Notes: generated from the letters alone by a model not told the origin. A stretch of DNA of 64,000 bases from Alphaproteobacteria bacterium (GCA_025210155.1 JAOASE010000002.1:2853-66852), one strand, 5' to 3'. Positions 4,034 through 53,064 are shown, counted from the first letter of the stretch. A program made the numbers and translations.

Positions 4034-5443
4034 ATGGATAATTTTAAATTAATAAAAGATATTGAAAGTAATTCTTATGATTATAAAGATACTTTAAAAG
4101 TTTCACCTATAGTTGTTAAAATTGCTGAAATAATTAAAAACTCTGAGAATGGAGATGTATTTGGTATAAATGCAGATTTTGGTGTTGGTAAAACAGTGTT
4201 TTGTCATAGGTTAAAGAAGTATTTAGAAAGTGATTTTGATAATATTATATATTTAGATATCTGGAAAGATGATCTTTCTGATAATCCTTTAATGCCAATA
4301 ATATATTCTATTACTAATGAACTTAGCACTAAAAATGATATAGTAAATAAAAAGTTAAAATCTATAGGGTGTGCTTTAGCTAAAACTGCTTTAAAAGCTG
4401 GTATTGGATATATAGAACAACAAGCTAATTTAAAAATAAAAGATACTTTTGATAAGGAATTTAATATAGATGGAGGAATTGATTCAATTATAAAAAGTTT
4501 GGAAAATGATGATGAATTTAAAAAATCTGAATACTTTAGAAATAAAAAGTTAAAAGATGAATTTAAAAAGACTTTGAGTGATTTTTTGAAAGACAAAAGT
4601 ATTTTACTTATTGTTGATGAGTTAGACAGATGTAGACCTGATTTTGCAGTTCATACTTTAGAAATTATAAAGCATTTTTTTGATGTTAATAATTTAAAAT
4701 TTGTCATATCTTCAAATAAAAATCAGTTACAAAGTGCTGTTAAATGTATTTATGGAGTAGAAGATTTTGATGGATATTATAGAAGGTTTGTTGATATAAA
4801 TTTCAATTTACCAAAAGTGGATTTTCAAAATTATTCAAATTATCTTTTTAATGATATCGGTTTAAAGTATGATAAGAAAAGAGTTTTAACTTTTTCTTTT
4901 AAGGATCAATTTAATTTAAAAAATATTGATGATGTTTTATCGGATACATTTTCTTATTATTCAAATTTATTTAATTTTTCTGCTAGAATGCAAAAACAAA
5001 TTTTTAATAAATTACAAAGTTTTGTTAATTCAGATAGTGAATTTGTTTTTATTCCTGAAATACATTTGGTATTATTATTAATATATGAATATAATTTGCA
5101 AATGTTTTTGGATTTAAAAGAAGATCCATCTCTTATTAATAGGCTTTTAGATAGTAAGATATCTGAAAGGTATGGTTATTGGAGAAATGGACTTTCAACT
5201 ATAGAGAGAAAAAATATTATTTATCTGTTTCAGTTTAGAGAATTAAGGAAAAATTTATCGGAATGGTATTTAATTAGTAACTTGATTAAACCTGTCGATT
5301 CTAAATCTGCTTTAACAAATATAAATTTATATCAGAATATTTTTTCAGATAAAAATATAAATTATTCAGATGATAAATTTTTTGAAATTTTAAGAAATAG
5401 TTTTGACTCTATAGAGTTTATAGAAAAAGTATTGGAAAATTAA
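4034..5443 (+). CDS. KAP-family P-loop NTPase
   Basis: Walker A FGVGKT and the KAP-signature Walker B LLIVDELDRCRPD are both present. 469 aa. The upstream intergenic region is AT-rich, and a terminator follows at 5474-5498. Confidence 0.7.
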   Translation: MDNFKLIKDIESNSYDYKDTLKVSPIVVKIAEIIKNSENGDVFGINADFGVGKTVFCHRLKKYLESDFDNIIYLDIWKDDLSDNPLMPIIYSITNELSTKNDIVNKKLKSIGCALAKTALKAGIGYIEQQANLKIKDTFDKEFNIDGGIDSIIKSLENDDEFKKSEYFRNKKLKDEFKKTLSDFLKDKSILLIVDELDRCRPDFAVHTLEIIKHFFDVNNLKFVISSNKNQLQSAVKCIYGVEDFDGYYRRFVDINFNLPKVDFQNYSNYLFNDIGLKYDKKRVLTFSFKDQFNLKNIDDVLSDTFSYYSNLFNFSARMQKQIFNKLQSFVNSDSEFVFIPEIHLVLLLIYEYNLQMFLDLKEDPSLINRLLDSKISERYGYWRNGLSTIERKNIIYLFQFRELRKNLSEWYLISNLIKPVDSKSALTNINLYQNIFSDKNINYSDDKFFEILRNSFDSIEFIEKVLEN

Positions 5444-17163: not shown

Positions 17164-17249
17164 TGGTGCGGGTGAGAGGACTTGAACCTCCACGCCGTAA
17201 AGCACAGGTACCTAAAACCTGCGTGTCTACCAATTTCACCACACCCGCA
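17164..17249 (-). tRNA. tRNA-Leu (anticodon TAG)
   Basis: The reverse complement folds as a class II tRNA with acceptor GCGGGTG, a long variable arm, T-loop TTCAAGTC and anticodon loop TTTAGGT. CCA is encoded. Confidence 0.8.
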
Positions 17250-17935: not shown

Positions 17936-18077
17936 TACTTTACAAATTAGGTTTATAAATCGTGTTAACAATGGGATTTTATTCAGCTTTTATAATTTTG
18001 CAAGTAATTTTATTATTTTCTTGTTTTATCTCTTAAATTTTATTAAAATATCATCATATAAGGATGAAAGGGAAGTT

Positions 18078-18536
18078 ATGTTCTTAGAAAAAAATCAAAA
18101 AGGTAGATCTGCTATAGAAATGCTTGGTGTTTTAGGTATTATGGGTATTATTACTATGTTGGGTATTGGAGCTTATAATATTGCTACTAGAAACGTTAAG
18201 GGTAATAATATTAAAGCAGAAGTTTCAGCTATTGCTCAAAAAGTAAAAACTATTACTCAGCCAGCAGCTTATGGGGACTGGGGATCATCTAAAACTTATA
18301 AGTCAGCTTTTGTTGATACAGGACTTATGCCAGCTCATAATGGTATGGGTGTTGGTTTGGATACGAATGCGACTACGACTGGATATACTATTACGGGTAT
18401 TGAAAATACCAGTTTTACGATTCATATCGGATTGAGGGATGATAAGGATTGTGCTATTGTTAAAGAACAAAATTGGAGTGAGGCTATAGACGTAAGTGAT
18501 TGCGATTCTGAAGGCTTATCTATAACGTTTGAATAA
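18078..18536 (+). CDS. type IV pilin-like protein, paralog 1
   Basis: Prepilin-like N-terminus: short basic leader, KG, then RSAIEMLGVLGIMGIITMLGIGAY (Glu at +5 and a 20-aa hydrophobic helix). C-terminal Cys pair DKDC...SDCD. Confidence 0.6.
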   Translation: MFLEKNQKGRSAIEMLGVLGIMGIITMLGIGAYNIATRNVKGNNIKAEVSAIAQKVKTITQPAAYGDWGSSKTYKSAFVDTGLMPAHNGMGVGLDTNATTTGYTITGIENTSFTIHIGLRDDKDCAIVKEQNWSEAIDVSDCDSEGLSITFE

Positions 18537-18652
18537 AAGAATTTTATTAGGATTGAATTGTGTTTTTTTTTAAAAAACGCTTTTCTTTTCTTTGAACCTG
18601 TGTTATATTATACACAATATTGATATGTAATATGAAAAAAGGAGATTTTAAT

Positions 18653-19153
18653 ATGTTATCAAGACAAAATCAAAAAGGTAGATCTATGATCGAAATGCTT
18701 GGTGTGCTAGGTATTATGGCTGTTATCACAGTTCTAGGTATTACGGCATATACTATGGCTACAAGAAACGTTAAATCAAACAACATTAAAGCTGAAGTTG
18801 CTACTATTGCTCAACAAGTTAGAACAATGACTCAACCTTCAGAATTTAGTGAATGGGATGGTTCTACAAGAGATTATGAATCAGCATTCGTTGATACTGG
18901 CCTTATGAAAGAGTACAACGGTATGGGTGTTTCTGATGGTTATGAAATTATTGGTGAAGACAATGTTGGTTTCGCTATTGTTATTAATTTAGATGACGAT
19001 GAAGATGCAGCTTTAGTTTACTCTATGGATTGGTCAAATGCTTCTGCAGTTCAATGTGTAGGTACAGCTCCAACATCTATAACAACAATACCAACAAGTG
19101 ATGACTCTTGTGCTTCTAACGAACAAGAAATCGTTATTTATTATAATAACTAG
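18653..19153 (+). CDS. type IV pilin-like protein, paralog 2
   Basis: AAGGAG SD; KGRSMIEMLGVLGIMAVITVLGITAY; C-terminal Cys pair QCVG...SCAS. The 5' ~190 nt is about 90% identical to paralog 3. Confidence 0.6.
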   Translation: MLSRQNQKGRSMIEMLGVLGIMAVITVLGITAYTMATRNVKSNNIKAEVATIAQQVRTMTQPSEFSEWDGSTRDYESAFVDTGLMKEYNGMGVSDGYEIIGEDNVGFAIVINLDDDEDAALVYSMDWSNASAVQCVGTAPTSITTIPTSDDSCASNEQEIVIYYNN

Positions 19154-19280
19154 TTTGTAATATATGGTTGTTAAAAGTCTCAACTTTGGTTGGGGCTTTT
19201 TTTTATTTTTGATGTTGAATAAAATCTTGTTTTATGTTATTTTTCCCCAGATTTTTTTAGAAATGAAAGGATATAAAATA

Positions 19281-19754
19281 ATGTTATTAAAACAAAACGA
19301 AAAAGGTAGATCTATGATCGAAATGCTTGGTGTGCTAGGTATTATGGCTGTTATTACAGTTTTAGGTATCACTGCTTACACTATGGCTACAAGAAATGTT
19401 AAATCAAATAATGTTAAAGCTGAAGTTGCTACTATTGCTCAACAAGTTAGAACAATGACACAACCATCTGAATTTGGTGAGTGGGCTGGTGGAGGCTCAA
19501 GAACTTTTAAAAGTGCATTTGTTGATACAGGTTTAATGAAAGCTTATAATGGTATGGGTGTTGGTACAGATTCTCGTCCAGGATATTCTCTTTTTGGAAA
19601 AAACAATGATGGTTTTGCAATTACTATTGCTGTTCCGGATGAAGAGGATTGTGCTTTGATAGCTTCTATGGACTGGTCTAATGCATTTAGTACAGAAGTT
19701 GATTGTGATAATGGGTTTGTTACAGTTAATTATGAGGGAAATCCAAGAGATTAG
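19281..19754 (+). CDS. type IV pilin-like protein, paralog 3
   Basis: Same N-terminus as paralog 2; C-terminal Cys pair EEDC...VDCD. A terminator-like CCCCTTTaaaaGGGG hairpin plus T5 follows. Confidence 0.6.
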   Translation: MLLKQNEKGRSMIEMLGVLGIMAVITVLGITAYTMATRNVKSNNVKAEVATIAQQVRTMTQPSEFGEWAGGGSRTFKSAFVDTGLMKAYNGMGVGTDSRPGYSLFGKNNDGFAITIAVPDEEDCALIASMDWSNAFSTEVDCDNGFVTVNYEGNPRD

Positions 19755-19860
19755 GTGAAATTAAAATCCCCTTTAAAAGGGGGTTTTTCATGTTTAAAAA
19801 AAATCTTTTCTATGTTATAATGTTTGAAAGTTGTAAAAATTAATATTTAAGGAGAAAAAA

Positions 19861-20298
19861 ATGTTTTTTAGAAAAAATGAAAAAGGTAGATCTATGATTG
19901 AGATGCTTGGTGTGTTAGCTATAATGGGTATCATTACAGCTCTAGCAGTTAGTTCTATTTCTGGCGGTACTAAATCTGTTAAGATGAACTCTTATAAGTC
20001 AGAAATTTTGAGTATAGTATCTGAAGTTAAGGAATTGTATGGTGATGATGCTGATTATACAGATGTAGCTTCGAATACTACAGCTTTAAGAAATATGGGG
20101 CTTACAGGAGAAGGTATATTGGATACATTTCCTAATGCTGTAGTTGCTATTAATAATAATGATGGTGCTACATTCCTTATGAGAGTTACTTTTGAAGATC
20201 AAGAAAACTGTAGTTTAATTGCTACTATGCAAGATGTTAGTGATGATTTAACTAATAACTGTTCATCTAATAAAAGTATTGATTACTTGTTTAATTAA
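19861..20298 (+). CDS. type IV pilin-like protein, paralog 4 (divergent)
   Basis: AAGGAG SD; KGRSMIEMLGVLAIMGIITALAV; C-terminal Cys pair ENCS...NNCSS. Confidence 0.55.
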   Translation: MFFRKNEKGRSMIEMLGVLAIMGIITALAVSSISGGTKSVKMNSYKSEILSIVSEVKELYGDDADYTDVASNTTALRNMGLTGEGILDTFPNAVVAINNNDGATFLMRVTFEDQENCSLIATMQDVSDDLTNNCSSNKSIDYLFN

Positions 20299-41610: not shown

Positions 41611-43137
41611 ATGACAGCTAAAGAAGATTCTAAAATTCAATATTATGAAAAGCATTCTGCTAATGTTGGGGATAATTTTACAGAGATTAAATATTCAGGA
41701 CCTACGCGTAAAGATTATAGGGGTAAGACTTTGTTGTCAGATTATGTATTTTATTCTGATGGTAAGGCTCTTAGAAATCATGAAAAGATTTTTGATGGAC
41801 ATTTGATGCAAAGAGATTTTCCAGAAGAATTTCTTCCTGATAATATGAAGGAAAGCTTAAAATATTTTAGGAATGAGAATCATGTTGATTATGTATTTGC
41901 CTCTAATTCTAAAAATAAATTAAAGTTATTGTTTGAAGGTGTGAATGATATTGAATTTAAACATGGATTTTTAATGCATGATACGGATAATGAGAATGAT
42001 GCTTTTAAATTAAGTTTTGTTGAAAACGAAGAAACTGGGAATATGGATTTGAATGGTTACTATGATTTAAAAGATCTTGTTACTAAGTTGGATGGAATTG
42101 AAAGAGGATATCATTTTCAAATACATGGTGAAAATACTTTTTCATTTAAAGTTGATGGGAGTGATGAAGTTGCTACTTATTTTTTAGTTAATGTTTTAGA
42201 TTGGGATAAGGGAGAAATTGAGTATTATCCTTTCGATAAAAATGTTAGAGAGCTTGTTGATGGGTTTGCTATTTTGGGTTGGAGAAAAAGTCCTGCAGAT
42301 CGTTATTCAAAAGAAGAATTTGATAAGGTTTATAAATTACTTGAAGATGGAAATTCTTTTCAAGATTTAGGTATAGATTATGATAATGCAAAAGGTAATA
42401 ATAAAAAGTTTGAAACTTATAGAGATGGAAAGTATTTTTCTTATTTAGATAAAGAAAATCTTTATTTAAAATCTATTGAAGAGAGGGAAGATGGTTTTTC
42501 TATAGATACTATTAAAGAAGGTAGTTATGATAAAGTTGGAGTTGGGAAGGATGATAATAATTGGGTTTCTTTTTATAAGAGAGATAAATCTAGAGATCTT
42601 ATCATATTAGATGGTGGCAATATTGTCTGGGAAGGAAATGAGGATAAAGAATATTCTTATAGAGATTATGATGGAATGTATGTTATATCTTATGATAGTT
42701 CGGAGCATGGTGTTAAGAAAAATAAGGAAGTTGTCTTTTTAGATGAAAATAAAAACGTTTTATTTAAGATAGAAAAATTCCAAAAGCATCAAAGTTATTA
42801 TTATACAGATAAGGATTTTGAAAATAATTCTTTATATGCTGAAAGTGATAATAATATATCCTTTTTAGAACATATATTGATGGATAGAACAGATTACTTT
42901 ACGAGTAACGATGAATTGGTAAGGTTTGTTAGAAGTATTCCTGAAGAAGAAATTGAGGATTTTAGGATTGAATTTCAAGAAATCATAGATCAGCTTAATT
43001 CTGAATATTCTGATTTTGTAAAAGATAAAGATATTAGAATTAGCCAGGCTAGAGAGAATGAAATTAGGAAAAATGAAATTTTTAATTTACAAAATAAGTT
43101 GAATGAACTTCAAAAAGAAGATCAATTACATGATTAA
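41611..43137 (+). CDS. hypothetical protein (508 aa), Asp/Glu/Lys/Tyr-rich, no signal peptide or TM segment
   Basis: A GGAGG SD lies 7 nt upstream; no family recognised. Confidence 0.4.
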   Translation: MTAKEDSKIQYYEKHSANVGDNFTEIKYSGPTRKDYRGKTLLSDYVFYSDGKALRNHEKIFDGHLMQRDFPEEFLPDNMKESLKYFRNENHVDYVFASNSKNKLKLLFEGVNDIEFKHGFLMHDTDNENDAFKLSFVENEETGNMDLNGYYDLKDLVTKLDGIERGYHFQIHGENTFSFKVDGSDEVATYFLVNVLDWDKGEIEYYPFDKNVRELVDGFAILGWRKSPADRYSKEEFDKVYKLLEDGNSFQDLGIDYDNAKGNNKKFETYRDGKYFSYLDKENLYLKSIEEREDGFSIDTIKEGSYDKVGVGKDDNNWVSFYKRDKSRDLIILDGGNIVWEGNEDKEYSYRDYDGMYVISYDSSEHGVKKNKEVVFLDENKNVLFKIEKFQKHQSYYYTDKDFENNSLYAESDNNISFLEHILMDRTDYFTSNDELVRFVRSIPEEEIEDFRIEFQEIIDQLNSEYSDFVKDKDIRISQARENEIRKNEIFNLQNKLNELQKEDQLHD

Positions 43138-43271
43138 TATTTTTGCAATAACCTTGTTAAATTAACGGGGTTATTTTTTTCTTTACAATAATTTCTTGAC
43201 AAAATATCTTCTATGGTTTATTTTGAGTTTAGTTAAAATGTAAATTATGATAATAGTTTAAATATATAGAT

Positions 43272-44129
43272 ATGAAAAAAATTAATTTAGAATTTCTTAA
43301 ATTGCATAACTTGTCTTTAGTTGCGGCATCTAATGATGGAAAGCTTTTTCTAAAGCTTATTAAAGATGATGAAAATAGTCACAATCATTCAATGAGAAGC
43401 TATGTTAAGTATATGTTTCATGATGTTGATTGTTTAGAAGATTCCATTTCTTTGAAGGTAAATAAGTTTGAATTCCCACAGTTTTTAAAAATTTTGGATA
43501 CGGAAGTTTTGATAAAGTTCTTTCAAGAGTTTAGAGTTTTATTAAATAAAACAGAAATATCGGGTACTACATATGTAGCCTTTGATGGAAATAAATTAGA
43601 AACTTTATATGCTAGTTTAGAAAAACGTGGGGATAATGATCCCTTAGCAGCTTTGGAATTGGAAAAGATTTTTTTAACCTATTTCTCTTTAGAAGAGAAA
43701 AATGGGGTGGAAGAAAAATCAGAAAAAGTTGATGTGCCGGAGCTGGTGCCTATAAAATCTTTTTTAGATGAAGGATATGGAGTTTCTTTTAAAGTTGAAA
43801 TTAACTTTAATAAATTGATGATTCAACTTAGTAAAGGGCCTAATTTCATTTTTGAATTCGGTTCAGCTTCTTCTAAAGAGCTGGATAGTTTTTATACCTA
43901 TCCAGTGGATTATAATTTAATGGAATTTGTGACTTCCAATATTATTGGAGAAAAAATGTGTTCTTTTTATGGAGATGTTAAATCTCATTTAAAAGAAAAT
44001 GTGGAGCTTGCTTTTTATAGAAGGGAAGGAAATGAATATTCTACATTTGCTAATACATTTTTTTCCGATGATGAAAATCAGAAAACTGAGTGTTTGGAAG
44101 GTTTGCGAACTAAGTACTTTGATTATTAA
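43272..44129 (+). CDS. hypothetical protein (285 aa)
   Basis: Starts MKKINLEFL, like the next ORF. A 12-bp perfect hairpin follows the stop. Confidence 0.35.
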   Translation: MKKINLEFLKLHNLSLVAASNDGKLFLKLIKDDENSHNHSMRSYVKYMFHDVDCLEDSISLKVNKFEFPQFLKILDTEVLIKFFQEFRVLLNKTEISGTTYVAFDGNKLETLYASLEKRGDNDPLAALELEKIFLTYFSLEEKNGVEEKSEKVDVPELVPIKSFLDEGYGVSFKVEINFNKLMIQLSKGPNFIFEFGSASSKELDSFYTYPVDYNLMEFVTSNIIGEKMCSFYGDVKSHLKENVELAFYRREGNEYSTFANTFFSDDENQKTECLEGLRTKYFDY

Positions 44130-44187
44130 TTTTTTATATATAGCCCTGTTAAATTATCAGGGCTATATAGTTAAAAAAATTACTGAG

Positions 44188-44544
44188 ATGAAAAAAATTA
44201 ATTTAGTAGATTTATTGTCTAAGGAGAATTTTAAATTTGGCTTTGGACTTTATCAAAAAGAAATTTCATTCGAATATGATAATTTAGTTGTCAAATTTGA
44301 ATTTGGTTTAAATAGAAAAATTATGATAAGTAAGCTTTCTGAAGAAGAGCGCAGGGTTAAGGCTTTATTTCCGGAAAATTTATTGGAAAGTTTTTTTAAA
44401 GAAGTATGTAAATTAATAGTAAATGATAAGGTTGTTTTAACTTTTTTAAATTCTAAATTTACTTCTATCGAGGCTGAATTCGGTTCTGCTGAAGATCATT
44501 TAGATGATGTTAAAAAAATAGTTGAAAAATACTTTGTATTATGA
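44188..44544 (+). CDS. hypothetical protein (118 aa); its N-terminus MKKINLVDLL echoes that of 43272..44129
   Basis: Start taken at the internal Met after the hairpin. A terminator AGGACC tttagg GGTCCT followed by TTT lies after the stop. Confidence 0.3.
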   Translation: MKKINLVDLLSKENFKFGFGLYQKEISFEYDNLVVKFEFGLNRKIMISKLSEEERRVKALFPENLLESFFKEVCKLIVNDKVVLTFLNSKFTSIEAEFGSAEDHLDDVKKIVEKYFVL

Positions 44545-44641
44545 GGACCTTTAGGGGTCCTTTTAATTTATCTCCTTGCTTTGTTTTGGGAGATTCTTTA
44601 GACTTTACTCATGTTATAATTTTTTGATTTAAGGGATTCTT

Positions 44642-45088
44642 ATGTATGAAATTTTAATTAGAAATGAATATGAAAATTTGGATGATATTTTATCTGAGTT
44701 TAATGTTGTTATAAAGGATGTTATTGAGGCTTCAGCTAGTTATTTGAATTTTTCTTTAGATGGAAAAGAAGTTTCTATTTTACTTACTAATGACAGTGAA
44801 ATTCATAAATTGAATAAAGATTTTAGAGGTAAAGATAAACCGACTAATGTTCTTTCTTTTGAAACGGAAGATGATGAAATGTTGGGTGATATTGTAGTTT
44901 CTATTGATACAGTTTTGAAAGAGGTTAAAGAGCAGGGTAAAGAATTTAAAAATCATTTCGTGCATTTAATTGTTCATGGATTTTTACATCTTCTGGGTTA
45001 TGATCATTTGGATGATTCTGAGGCTGATGAGATGGAAGGTTTAGAAATAGAAATTATGGAAAGTATGGGGTTGGATAATCCTTATTAA
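44642..45088 (+). CDS. ybeY: rRNA maturation endoribonuclease YbeY
   Basis: HLIVHGFLHLLGYDH zinc-binding motif; 148 aa. Confidence 0.85.
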   Translation: MYEILIRNEYENLDDILSEFNVVIKDVIEASASYLNFSLDGKEVSILLTNDSEIHKLNKDFRGKDKPTNVLSFETEDDEMLGDIVVSIDTVLKEVKEQGKEFKNHFVHLIVHGFLHLLGYDHLDDSEADEMEGLEIEIMESMGLDNPY

Positions 45089-45100
45089 AGATTTTTAATC

Positions 45101-46684
45101 ATGAAAAAATATAGAGAAAGAAGTAGGATTTATTTTATGAAAAGTTGGGTTGAAAAAGTAGTTAAATTTTTAAAGGAAAAAAAGATTTTTTCTTTGGCAT
45201 TTTTAGGTTTGATTGTTGGTCTTTGTGAACCTAAAATTGATAGTCAAATTTGGTGGTTAAAATTTACTATAATTGGTGTTTGTTTAAATGTTTTTTATAG
45301 TGTTTTAAAAGATACTTTTAGTAAGAAGATTTCGTTTAAAGAATTTTACTTTTTAGTACTTTCATTTTTTTATGGATGGTTTTTTGTTTCGGCATCTTGG
45401 GTTGCTAATTCTGCATTAGTGAATGGGTTGCCATCTTATTTTGTTGTTGGATATTTTTTAATTAGAGTGTTTTTCCCTGTTGTTTTGGCAGGTGTTAAAT
45501 CTATACCTTTTTATTTTTTATGGAAATATCAAAAAGGGCAAAATAATGTTTGGAAAGCGATTCTTTTTGCAGTTGTTTTTGTGTTGTCAGAGATGTTTTT
45601 AACTTTTGTTTGGCAAGGTTGGCCTTATGAATATATGGCTTATAATTGGTTTGAAGTGAAGAGTATGATTCAGCTGGTATCTTTACCGTTTATCTCGGTT
45701 TTTGATTTATCCTTAGTTACTATGCTTTTGATACTATCTTTTAGGTTTATTAATTTTAAAAATAAATCGATTCGACCGGCGTTTTTGGCATTTTTCCTAC
45801 CTTTTGTGGTTACTATCTCTTTTGGATTTGTTAGGTTGAGTGGGTATGAAAAGTATGATGTATCTAAGTCGGATTTGAAGTTAGATTTTTATTTGTTTCA
45901 GGGTAACGCTCCTTCATATATAAAATATACTCCTAAGGTTATAGATCAAAGAAAAACAGATTTAATAAATATGCAATCTACTATTTCTTTGGATGAAAAT
46001 TCTGATAGGATTCCTGTTTTTACTTTTTATGAATCTGCTTTGCAATATTATATAGGTGGCAGTAAACTTCATATAGAAGAAATTCAAAAAATCATTCCTA
46101 AAAATGGATATTTAATTTCTGGTCACTTAGCTTCTTTTGGATATATAGATCATAAAACTGATGATTTTGAAAGGAAGTTTTTTAACTCACTTTCTACATT
46201 TGATTCTAATGGAAATATTATTCATACTTATGATAAAAAAAGGTTGGTTGCTTTTGGTGAATACTTGCCTTGGTTTTTGAAAATTTTTGTTCCTGAAAAT
46301 GGAGAGGGAAGTGGATTTTCTAATGGTGAAAATAGAGATGAATTATTCTTAAAAGATAGATTGTTTTTCTTACCTAAAATATGTCATGAAATTACATTTC
46401 CATTCTGGAATTTTAAATTCTGGAAAAAGAAAGATGATGTTGAAAAGTTTGCCATACTAAATGTTCTTAATGAGGGATGGTTTGCAGATAAGGTTTTAGA
46501 TAAGCATTATATCATTTCTACATTTCAAGCAGTAGAAAATAACAAGCCTTTATTAAGAATTGCTAATACAGGTTTAACAGGGGCGATTGATAAATATGGT
46601 TTTTCTATGGATGGAATTTCAAACGGAGAAAAGAAAAAATATTTAAATAAAAATATTTCTGGTATTTTAAAAATTTCTCTGTAA
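45101..46684 (+). CDS. lnt: apolipoprotein N-acyltransferase
   Basis: 527 aa with an N-terminal polytopic membrane domain and a C-terminal CN-hydrolase domain. The position after ybeY is a conserved context. Confidence 0.75.
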   Translation: MKKYRERSRIYFMKSWVEKVVKFLKEKKIFSLAFLGLIVGLCEPKIDSQIWWLKFTIIGVCLNVFYSVLKDTFSKKISFKEFYFLVLSFFYGWFFVSASWVANSALVNGLPSYFVVGYFLIRVFFPVVLAGVKSIPFYFLWKYQKGQNNVWKAILFAVVFVLSEMFLTFVWQGWPYEYMAYNWFEVKSMIQLVSLPFISVFDLSLVTMLLILSFRFINFKNKSIRPAFLAFFLPFVVTISFGFVRLSGYEKYDVSKSDLKLDFYLFQGNAPSYIKYTPKVIDQRKTDLINMQSTISLDENSDRIPVFTFYESALQYYIGGSKLHIEEIQKIIPKNGYLISGHLASFGYIDHKTDDFERKFFNSLSTFDSNGNIIHTYDKKRLVAFGEYLPWFLKIFVPENGEGSGFSNGENRDELFLKDRLFFLPKICHEITFPFWNFKFWKKKDDVEKFAILNVLNEGWFADKVLDKHYIISTFQAVENNKPLLRIANTGLTGAIDKYGFSMDGISNGEKKKYLNKNISGILKISL

Positions 46685-51699: not shown

Positions 51700-53064
51700 T
51701 TAGAAGCCTGTTATATCAGTACATTGACTTAGATAAACTTTAAGTTTTGAACTTTGTAAAGCTGTTCTTGAATCGATAGGAACTAATCTGTCACCAACTT
51801 GTTTTTGAACAGAACAGATATTCATTCCTGTGTTGTTAGAACTTATTACAAATATGTTTGTTTTTCCAGACATGTTATTTACGTGACTTACGAAGCTATC
51901 AATATTATTTTTGCTTACGGCAGACCCAAATACGTTTTGACTTATTTGAGCATCAATTGGATTGTTAGCATCTACATAAGTTGGGTTTTCAAGTATTATT
52001 GAAAGTCTGCTTGTTGCAACACCAATGTTAGTAGTATTGATATTGTATATAACTCCATTTATTAAAGCATCTAGTTTTGAGCCATCTGAGTCAGCTGGAG
52101 CTACTGCAGGAGCTGAAGGTTGAGCAGAAGTTCTACCTTTTATTTTGTTTATGCTACTGCCTATTGCGTTAATGATGTTTGCATCACTATTTGATAGACC
52201 AGCATTGGCATTATTAATTCCTTTTTGCATAGCATAAGCATCTCTTTGTTTTGTTAGAGAGTTTGTTTGGCTATCAGGTGAATATAAATTTATGTCAGTA
52301 ATTTCGAAATCATCTACACCACAAGCTGCCTTGGCTTTCATCATGTATGTAGAAAGTACCGCGTCTACTGTTTGTCTCCAGTTAGCTTCTTTCCCTGTGA
52401 ATTGACCTGTAGTGAAGTTGTCTACATATCCCATAATATTAGATGCGCCCATGTTTCCTGCTCTTTCGAAGTCTCTTCTAACTTCGCCAGAACAAGATCC
52501 TTTTGCTCCATCAAAATATGAACCTGATGAAGAAATTACTTTCATGTGGCAATCTTTAGCTTTGTTTAATAAATCTTTTGCTCTTTGGCATTCGTAAGAG
52601 CTTTCTTTAGCACTTTGTTCGATGTTATTTTTTATAGATAAAAATCTTTCGATAGCTTTTGATTTGTAAGCTGAACATTTTTGTCTGTAATGTTCTTCTT
52701 GATTTGCAGGAACTACATAGAATAGATTTGCATCCATGAATGTAGATAGGTCAGACATAGAAGAATCTGCGCAATCTTGATAAACGCCATTTGAAACATC
52801 TATATCGTCGTAACAAGCTTTATCTAATGCTTGAAGTAATACAGAGATACAATCCTCTTGAGAGTATTGAGCTAGGTAATAATTGTTATACTGTTGTCCA
52901 CCTACGGCCATGAAGCCACCGTTTCCATTACTTTTCATATAACCTATATGTTTTTGAGCATTTCTTTGGTTGGCGTACCTAGTATTTGTTACAAGAGAAA
53001 AGGCATCATTTGATACTAAAAATGAAGTTAAAAATATTGGTAATAGTGCTTTTTTAAGTTTCAT
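51700..53064 (-). CDS. secreted Cys-rich hypothetical protein (454 aa)
   Basis: Signal peptide MKLKKALLPIFLTSFLVSNDAFS and about 12 Cys. Its stop lies 1 nt from the prfB start. Confidence 0.4.
   Translation of the reverse strand: MKLKKALLPIFLTSFLVSNDAFSLVTNTRYANQRNAQKHIGYMKSNGNGGFMAVGGQQYNNYYLAQYSQEDCISVLLQALDKACYDDIDVSNGVYQDCADSSMSDLSTFMDANLFYVVPANQEEHYRQKCSAYKSKAIERFLSIKNNIEQSAKESSYECQRAKDLLNKAKDCHMKVISSSGSYFDGAKGSCSGEVRRDFERAGNMGASNIMGYVDNFTTGQFTGKEANWRQTVDAVLSTYMMKAKAACGVDDFEITDINLYSPDSQTNSLTKQRDAYAMQKGINNANAGLSNSDANIINAIGSSINKIKGRTSAQPSAPAVAPADSDGSKLDALINGVIYNINTTNIGVATSRLSIILENPTYVDANNPIDAQISQNVFGSAVSKNNIDSFVSHVNNMSGKTNIFVISSNNTGMNICSVQKQVGDRLVPIDSRTALQSSKLKVYLSQCTDITGF

Follow-up and report, generated by a model that had tools for sequence, protein, structure and literature searches.

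The stretch of DNA analyzed here (64,000 nucleotides, hereafter called the window) belongs to an uncultured alphaproteobacterial metagenome-assembled genome (MAG) that consists of one contig of 1,048,500 bp (~1.05 Mb), and carries between positions 18078 and 20298 four consecutive small genes whose products resemble type IV pilins in their N-terminal part. The question raised by this locus is whether the genes encode subunits of a surface filament, as an initial annotation of the sequence had proposed, or other proteins bearing the same kind of N-terminal signal, such as the pseudopilins suggested by their automatic names. Three independent lines of evidence, namely fold, sequence and the genomic context of relatives, indicate that all four encode prepilins of the type IVb lineage and are paralogs of one another. 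For the broader reading, in which the prepilins are cleaved after Gly9 and assembled into a filament with variable exposed domains while gene conversion homogenizes the 5' segment of their genes, we estimate a probability of about 0.8.

The four ORFs all lie on the + strand, in the arrangement originally annotated, each of the intervals given below running from the ATG to the end of the stop codon. Paralog 1 (18078..18536) encodes a protein of 152 aa, 143 aa in its predicted mature form, with the leader MFLEKNQKG followed by RSAIEMLGVLGIMG..., and has a 94% identical ortholog, P0003, in another sample. Paralog 2 (18653..19153, 166 aa) and paralog 3 (19281..19754, 157 aa), the latter being the sequence used for modelling, are identical to GenBank MCT4552072.1 and MCT4552073.1, respectively. 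Paralog 4 (19861..20298, 145 aa) is the most divergent, sharing 44-49% identity with the other three in the N-terminal 62 residues and 22-27% beyond. In all six frames of the window, only four sites combine the pattern G-x-[ST]-x-x-E with a hydrophobic run behind it, and they coincide with these genes. The array is flanked by housekeeping genes, with those for trigger factor (tig), tRNA-Leu (17164-17248, minus strand) and adenylate kinase (adk) upstream and a UPF0102 gene, MscS, DUF374, kdtA, lpxK and lpxC downstream; it thus lies outside any compact type IVb assembly operon. The tRNA-Leu is the only Rfam match in the array region, and the GC content of ~30% presents nothing unusual across the array.

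The N-termini of all four proteins conform to M(F/L)xxxN(Q/E)KG|RS(A/M)IEMLGVL(G/A)IM, in which a short basic leader of nine residues ends with Gly(-1) and is followed by Glu at +5 and a run of about 20 hydrophobic residues. Every element of a class III signal is therefore present in each paralog, and the near identity of the N-termini noted in the initial annotation is borne out by the shared KG|RS(M/A)IEMLGVL. The N-terminal part of the alpha1 helix (alpha1N) has Arg1, no Pro, Gly8, Gly11 and Gly14/Gly20, in agreement with the definition of type IVb pilins by a variable residue at position 1, the lack of Pro22 and glycine hinges in alpha1N (PMC10710030). The leader of 9 aa and the predicted mature proteins of 136-157 aa are shorter than those usual in type IVb pilins, which have leaders of ~15-30 aa and mature proteins of ~180-200 aa (PMC3927602, PMC10710030). 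Since these lengths are type IVa-like (PMC3927602) yet the diagnostic residues are those of type IVb, the classical rules would make the family a hybrid.

Each protein contains exactly two Cys, separated by 16-17 residues, with a C-terminal tail of 10-15 residues after the second. This pair had been likened to the D-region disulfide of type IVa pilins; the two Cys are present in all four proteins, but by homology the first corresponds to that of the type IVb pilins TcpA and CofA. Paralog 2 departs from this arrangement, for its two Cys (Cys135 and Cys153; cf. Cys125 and Cys142 in paralog 1) include a first residue that is off the family position, where Ala is found instead (D-A-A, not D-C-A), and lies within a Thr/Ser/Pro-rich C-terminal insertion.

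The predicted structure recovers the alpha-beta architecture of pilins anticipated by the initial annotation, with an alpha1 helix of ~50 residues packed on an antiparallel beta-sheet, and its affinities, like those of the sequence profile, are with TcpA and CofA; a Foldseek search against the PDB returned nothing significant. When the family profile (A2) was compared with all PDB sequences, TcpA was retrieved with E 3.3e-7 and CofA with E 4.3e-4. These alignments extend from alpha1 through the conserved F-A-I-x-V-x-G-L-x-x-x-x-C element bearing the first Cys, and place Arg10 of the precursor opposite Met1 of the mature, experimentally solved TcpA and CofA subunits. Homology with solved type IVb pilins includes the globular domain, at the level of both sequence and modelled structure.

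The proposed type IV pilin identity is upheld by the TcpA match of the family profile, whereas the curated N-terminal models remain below their cut-offs: Pfam PF07963 (N_methyl) scores 20.6 bits with paralog 4 against a gathering cut-off of 21.2, 14.6 with paralog 2 and has no match to the others, while TIGR02532 reaches 15.0 against 16.3. NCBIfam gives sub-threshold N-terminal matches only (ComGE, GspH, PulG). The shortfall against the curated models is located at +1 (Arg) and +3 (Met). Because N_methyl, TIGR02532 and G-F/M-T-L-I-E patterns all score the family sub-threshold, many of its members are labelled 'hypothetical' or misnamed 'GspH' or 'YpmB'. A competence pilin (ComGC/ComGE) was also considered and ruled out, its similarity covering the N-terminal helix only, with 19-24 bits against cut-offs of 49-75.

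The third line of evidence is the gene neighborhood in which relatives occur. Locus L045 (MAG INTA.CYC.063) contains a block of five machinery genes, coding for a TcpQ-domain (TcpQ/PilL) protein, a secretin, PAP_PilO, the T2SSE ATPase and the T2SSF platform, and immediately after it three genes whose products have K/Q-G-R-S-M-I-E-M N-termini, an order that is the same as in type IVb operons of the R64/Tcp type. The same machinery is present at loci L056 and L057. These operon-linked relatives (L045, L056) are distant and belong to gut and rumen Alphaproteobacteria MAGs, in which pilin genes are also found scattered among housekeeping genes.

In an exhaustive HMMER search covering 1.84 billion representative proteins, 8301 representatives of the family passed E<=1e-3, of which 4261 also passed E<=1e-10. 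Scanning genome contigs for IEMLGVL[AG]I yielded at least 600 stretches, and 582 of those listed were confirmed as relatives; among the matches listed, nearly all come from uncultured Alphaproteobacteria MAGs of gut, rumen and termite gut, with no more than 37% identity, the window's own MAG not being among them. Across the 80 loci that were kept, 123 genes bear the motif, frequently arranged in tandem as groups of 2-5, and the gut-clade members, counted from Gly(-1) at the cleavage site to the stop, measure ~180-237 aa. Copy number may be high, as in the rumen MAG RGIG4773 with at least 29 distinct paralogs in 12 loci. No tblastn match to paralog 3 was found among 72,556 plasmids, nor any match to it in the metagenome contig collection that was scanned, which consequently does not include the genome of the window, and our search of the literature on the motif, RF32 pili and type IVb pilins in alphaproteobacterial MAGs found no description of the motif or family. 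The four genes are thus members of a large, uncurated, Alphaproteobacteria-associated branch of type IVb pilins, a known type of system rather than a new one.

In the window's own genome there are eight paralogs at four loci, including the four of the array. The other four, on contig Ga0400167_219727 (1,048,500 bp), a length also reported by JGI for the contig bearing two window ORFs (P0121 and P0123), are a pair at ~82 kb (P0128 and P0124), P0127 at ~94 kb (= P0009 = MCT4552591.1) and P0125 at ~558 kb (= P0008). Upstream of P0127, on the same strand and contig, lies a gene for a prepilin peptidase of the Peptidase_A24 family (33.4 bits against a cut-off of 26.5), the lack of which the initial annotation had regarded as an argument against its own reading. 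GenBank numbering places this gene in the same MAG, MCT4552591 being the pilin and MCT4552598 GcrA, and the peptidase itself is probably MCT4552597.1. The enzyme shows the motifs D...LIPD and GGGDLK, has the A24 domain alone, with no N-terminal DiS_P_DiS domain detected, and shares 26-28% identity with gut-clade A24 peptidases encoded close to pilin genes. Between its gene and P0127 there are five genes for Cys-rich proteins with Sec signals, to which no family could be assigned.

As initially reported, no pilD, pilB or pilC came to light in the window itself: a Pfam scan of 40 window ORFs detected none of the domains T2SSE, T2SSF, Peptidase_A24 and secretin, and tblastn with E. coli GspD/E/F/O and the machinery proteins of L045 gave no match in its 64 kb. 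Reading around every paralog in this genome, and past gcrA, revealed housekeeping genes only, and the window and the other loci inspected, ~127 kb of 1,048 kb in all, yielded no gene for an ATPase, platform protein or secretin. This corresponds to only ~12% of the genome, and the machinery may be encoded elsewhere on the contig.

Proteins of the prepilin type that have lost, or never had, the ability to form filaments might instead be displayed on the membrane or cell surface, or released after cleavage, in a reduced genome having no dedicated assembly ATPase, a situation that recalls how prepilin-domain proteins have expanded in Verrucomicrobia and Planctomycetes. The ~12% of the genome just mentioned agrees with this alternative, as does the very large number of paralogs (at least 29 in one MAG) scattered among housekeeping genes, but absence from so small a fraction carries little weight. 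The alternative, moreover, does not account well for the conservation of the whole alpha1 helix, including Ser2, Glu5 and the glycine positions that serve in filament packing, for the location of relatives inside complete pilus operons or for the retention of the peptidase and eight intact paralogs in a genome of 1 Mb. We consequently judge such non-assembling proteins to be an improbable explanation.

Slightly less credit can be given to the idea that the genes encode pseudopilins of type II secretion, which form a short periplasmic pseudopilus pushing substrates through a secretin and not a surface pilus. The automatic names of NCBI and JGI point in this direction, since GenBank labels two array proteins 'GspH family', and so do weak N-terminal matches to GspH, XpsH and GspG models; pseudopilins would use the same class III signal, and the Cys-rich proteins with Sec signals that adjoin the peptidase and pilin paralogs can be imagined as their substrates. 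The likeness to GspH concerns the class III signal peptide and the N-terminal hydrophobic helix. The array proteins, however, score 12.9-18.8 bits with TIGR01708 against a cut-off of 80, and the matches of their globular domain are to major pilins of type IVb. The window scans (Pfam and tblastn) found no gsp genes near the array. We conclude that the GspH product name of MCT4552072.1 is an over-annotation. Pseudopilins of a Tad system (TadE/TadF-like), which would be processed by a TadV/CpaA-type peptidase without methyltransferase domain, as is common in Alphaproteobacteria, and would suit a class in which Tad loci are widespread, are hardly credible here: besides the A24 peptidase with no detected N-terminal DiS_P_DiS domain they can claim a single weak TadF match (E 0.063; 13.6 bits against a cut-off of 27.3), while none of the loci showed a Flp-type short pilin or Tad gene, both the fold and the profile point to TcpA and CofA, and the operons of relatives have TcpQ, PAP_PilO and secretin, not RcpA or TadZ/B/C.

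Returning to the type IVb prepilins, their most distinctive feature is the residue at +1. Gly(-1), Arg(+1) and Glu(+5) occur without exception among the best 120 word-index matches, 119 of which also have Ser(+2) and 117 Met(+3), and G-R was found in 138 of 140 further top representatives of the HMMER search, the other two lacking the N-terminus. Judging from these alignments, the G|R junction is shared by the top members of the family that were inspected (median leader 8 aa) and is not a peculiarity of this locus. To our knowledge, no characterized or experimentally processed prepilin has Arg at +1, for which reason cleavage at G|R is a prediction; the prepilin would be cut at this junction, leaving Arg1 as the first residue of the mature subunit. 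Since Arg1 is at i/i+4 from Glu5 on the helix, it could neutralize this residue by an intrahelical salt bridge, a possibility that fits an A24 peptidase in which the N-terminal, methyltransferase-associated domain is not detected. N-methylation would then presumably be absent. If so, the invariant Arg at mature position 1 would represent a new way of neutralizing Glu5 in the filament core, and Arg1 prepilins would widen the known substrate range of prepilin peptidases.

The genes also bear the marks of an uneven divergence. Repeat analysis identified the 5' segment as four direct copies (family D1) with spacings of 575, 628 and 580 nt; the copy of gene 2 (18638..18862, + strand), which comprises the SD sequence, leader and alpha1 helix, is 88% identical to that of gene 3 (19266-19490) and 71% to that of gene 1 (18063-18287). 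The initial estimate that paralogs 2 and 3 are ~90% identical over ~190 nt and then diverge proved accurate, for their nucleotide identity is 91% in the initial 186 nt and falls to 60% beyond them; dN rises from 0.03 to 0.48 and dS from 0.35 to 1.12 between these segments, each having only ~40-60 synonymous sites. The same contrast extends to comparisons among paralogs 2 and 3, P0124 and P0128, with 5' dS of 0.19-0.35 and 3' dS of 0.6-1.5 (again on ~40-60 synonymous sites per segment), and in all eight paralogs the first 62 codons are far more conserved than the remainder. Purifying selection alone would not lower dS, and therefore the 5' segment has probably been homogenized by gene conversion; the pattern of conversion suggested initially is in this respect supported, as a partial conversion limited to the 5' segment. 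Between strains, the comparison of paralog 1 with P0005 shows 3/62 differences in the N-terminal part against 29/98 in the C-terminal part, and that of paralog 4 with P0006 0/62 against 6/83. A contig from another sample (L092; JGI sample 3300045489) passes from the P0128/P0124 locus to window gene 3, the switch lying within 61 nt that are identical in P0124 and gene 3 (coding-sequence nt 55-115), where a second contig from that sample also ends; L092 may be either a true recombinant or an assembly chimera. A lone inverted-repeat pair, with arms at 17975-17996 and 19205-19226 (22 nt, 77% complementary), is present in the array region but is weak, so that the repeats give no indication of a DNA switch inverting in the manner of a shufflon.

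Such a pattern recalls the pilE/pilS system of Neisseria, which likewise has multiple copies that are conserved at the 5' end and variable at the 3' end, with signs of gene conversion by segments. Neisseria pilS cassettes, however, are silent and lack the 5' end, whereas the four copies of the array are complete with start codon, SD sequence and leader; in addition, it is here the 5' part that appears homogenized while the 3' parts stay distinct. Compared with TcpA of Vibrio cholerae and CofA of ETEC CFA/III, the array pilins have a leader of 9 aa instead of ~15-30 aa, mature proteins of 136-157 aa instead of ~190-200 aa, invariant Arg instead of Met at residue 1, and multiple gene copies located apart from any assembly operon. 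The Cys-Cys segment, of ~65 residues in TcpA, is reduced to 16-17 in the array. They differ also from PilS of R64 and Salmonella Typhi (pilL-pilV operon), since the array is chromosomal and without link to conjugation, and the family includes dozens of pilin paralogs in place of one PilS plus PilV; neither a shufflon nor a recombinase came to notice in the loci read.

On these bases, the following sequence of events may be envisaged. The prepilin would insert into the inner membrane by its hydrophobic alpha1 helix, and the Peptidase_A24 enzyme of this genome would remove the 9-residue leader by cutting after Gly(-1), with Arg1 as the new N-terminus. A type IV filament machine (ATPase, platform and secretin, as in the distant relatives) would then polymerize the subunits into a filament having the conserved alpha1 helices in its core and the variable C-terminal halves on its surface. 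Purifying selection together with partial gene conversion would keep uniform the nearly identical 5' segment of the eight paralogs, and the diverged 3' halves would furnish a repertoire of alternative or minor subunits, through which the surface of the filament could vary.

The retention of eight intact paralogs and a peptidase in a genome of 1.05 Mb suggests a surface structure central to the lifestyle of this bacterium, most plausibly one by which it attaches to a host or partner. These results leave the general understanding of type IV pili unchanged and add a sizeable unexplored branch, which numbers its sequence clusters in thousands and, in gut and rumen Alphaproteobacteria, reaches dozens of copies per genome. 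A more ambitious proposal, which we advance tentatively and consider unlikely, is that these proteins constitute an unrecognized major branch of type IV filament subunits, largely confined to uncultured Alphaproteobacteria, in which an invariant Arg1-Glu5 pair and a methyltransferase-less peptidase go together with surface-variation repertoires of 8 to more than 29 complete paralogs, kept even in a reduced genome of 1 Mb and homogenized in their 5' parts by gene conversion. Arg1 would then replace the N-methylated hydrophobic residue 1, and the Cys-rich, lineage-specific secreted proteins encoded between the peptidase and pilin genes would be partners or cargo of the filament.

The array has local sequence elements that bear upon its expression. 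A strong SD sequence had been assigned to each gene; this holds for genes 2 and 4, which have clear AGGAG-type sequences (AGGAG 8 nt before the ATG in gene 2), but not for genes 1 and 3, where weaker AAGGA/AAAGGA are found. Terminator-like sites in the array region number 6 against 1.4 expected from shuffles, and include, as consensus matches, a hairpin with T-run after gene 2 (19173..19200, + strand) and another, CCCCTTTAAAAGGGGG with its T-run, after gene 3 (19763..19787, + strand); the same scan found no hairpin between genes 1 and 2, which may be co-transcribed. Before gene 4 there is a promoter-like element (19793..19821, + strand; TTTAAA-17-TATAAT with TG before the second hexamer) that matches the consensus at 10/12 positions and has a layout conserved in the alignment of upstream regions (A3). 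The corresponding element before gene 3 (19215..19243, + strand; TTGAAT-N17-TATTTT, also with TG before the second hexamer) is weaker and, being under the 9/12 threshold of the scanner, was placed by alignment A3 with the equivalents of gene 4, P0124 and P0128, so that its function as a promoter is putative. Genes 3 and 4 would thus appear, from these motifs, to have a promoter and a terminator of their own.

A 17.7-kb contig of JGI sample 3300045489 (L092) fuses the locus of the pilin paralogs P0128 and P0124, which form a pair outside the window, to gene 3 of the tandem pilin array (window 19281-19754) and to all that lies downstream of it. The crossover falls within a 61-nt stretch that is identical in both pilin genes (L092 10695-10755, corresponding to window 19336-19396, within gene 3), and its product is the hybrid pilin P0001. 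Another contig of the same sample, L090, ends at window 19382, inside the same 61-nt stretch. The junction in L092 is either a recombinant or else an assembly chimera. The P0128 paralog differs between samples: it is full length on the 1.05-Mb contig of the window's genome from sample 3300039008, with an ORF of 169 aa, and is represented in JGI sample 3300045498 by P0007, a shortened allele of 130 aa (L083 1916-2308).

Pilins with the GRSMIEM type of N-terminus are numerous in the rumen alphaproteobacterial MAG RGIG4773 (JAFUSA01 contigs), in which at least 29 distinct ORFs are distributed across 12 loci; this count is a lower bound that covers the 12 loci fetched, within L004-L076. The ORFs frequently form tandem groups and are dispersed amid housekeeping genes.

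Members of a lineage-specific family of Cys-rich proteins with a Sec signal, which has no match in Pfam or NCBIfam, are present in the window and at two other pilin loci. The Peptidase_A24 gene and the pilin P0127 are separated by five tandem paralogs of 337-856 aa (L084 2075-9833), and two more, of 253 and 314 aa, are found immediately upstream of the P0128/P0124 pair (L091 8194-9921). The member in the window, a protein of 454 aa with 10 Cys, is encoded on the minus strand at 51700-53064, 31 kb away from the pilin array. When the five L084 paralogs were used as tblastn queries, no relatives were retrieved among 80 gut and rumen loci. These proteins may be pilus-associated or secreted partners.

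Elsewhere in the window, a gene for a KAP-family P-loop NTPase (4034-5443, plus strand; Pfam E value 2.7e-33) is surrounded by housekeeping genes in a region of lower local GC (0.27). Successive plus-strand ORFs of 508, 285, 181 and 527 aa, none with a Pfam match at E≤1e-5, occupy 41611-46684, and the last of these resembles a multi-pass membrane protein. Between approximately 4 kb and 46 kb the GC skew is strongly positive (0.25-0.42), and it drops to near zero beyond approximately 46 kb, except for a short positive stretch at 54-56 kb, and the genes lie mostly on the plus strand in the first part and mostly on the minus strand past approximately 46 kb. Either strand-biased gene orientation or a switch in skew near 46-50 kb would fit this pattern.
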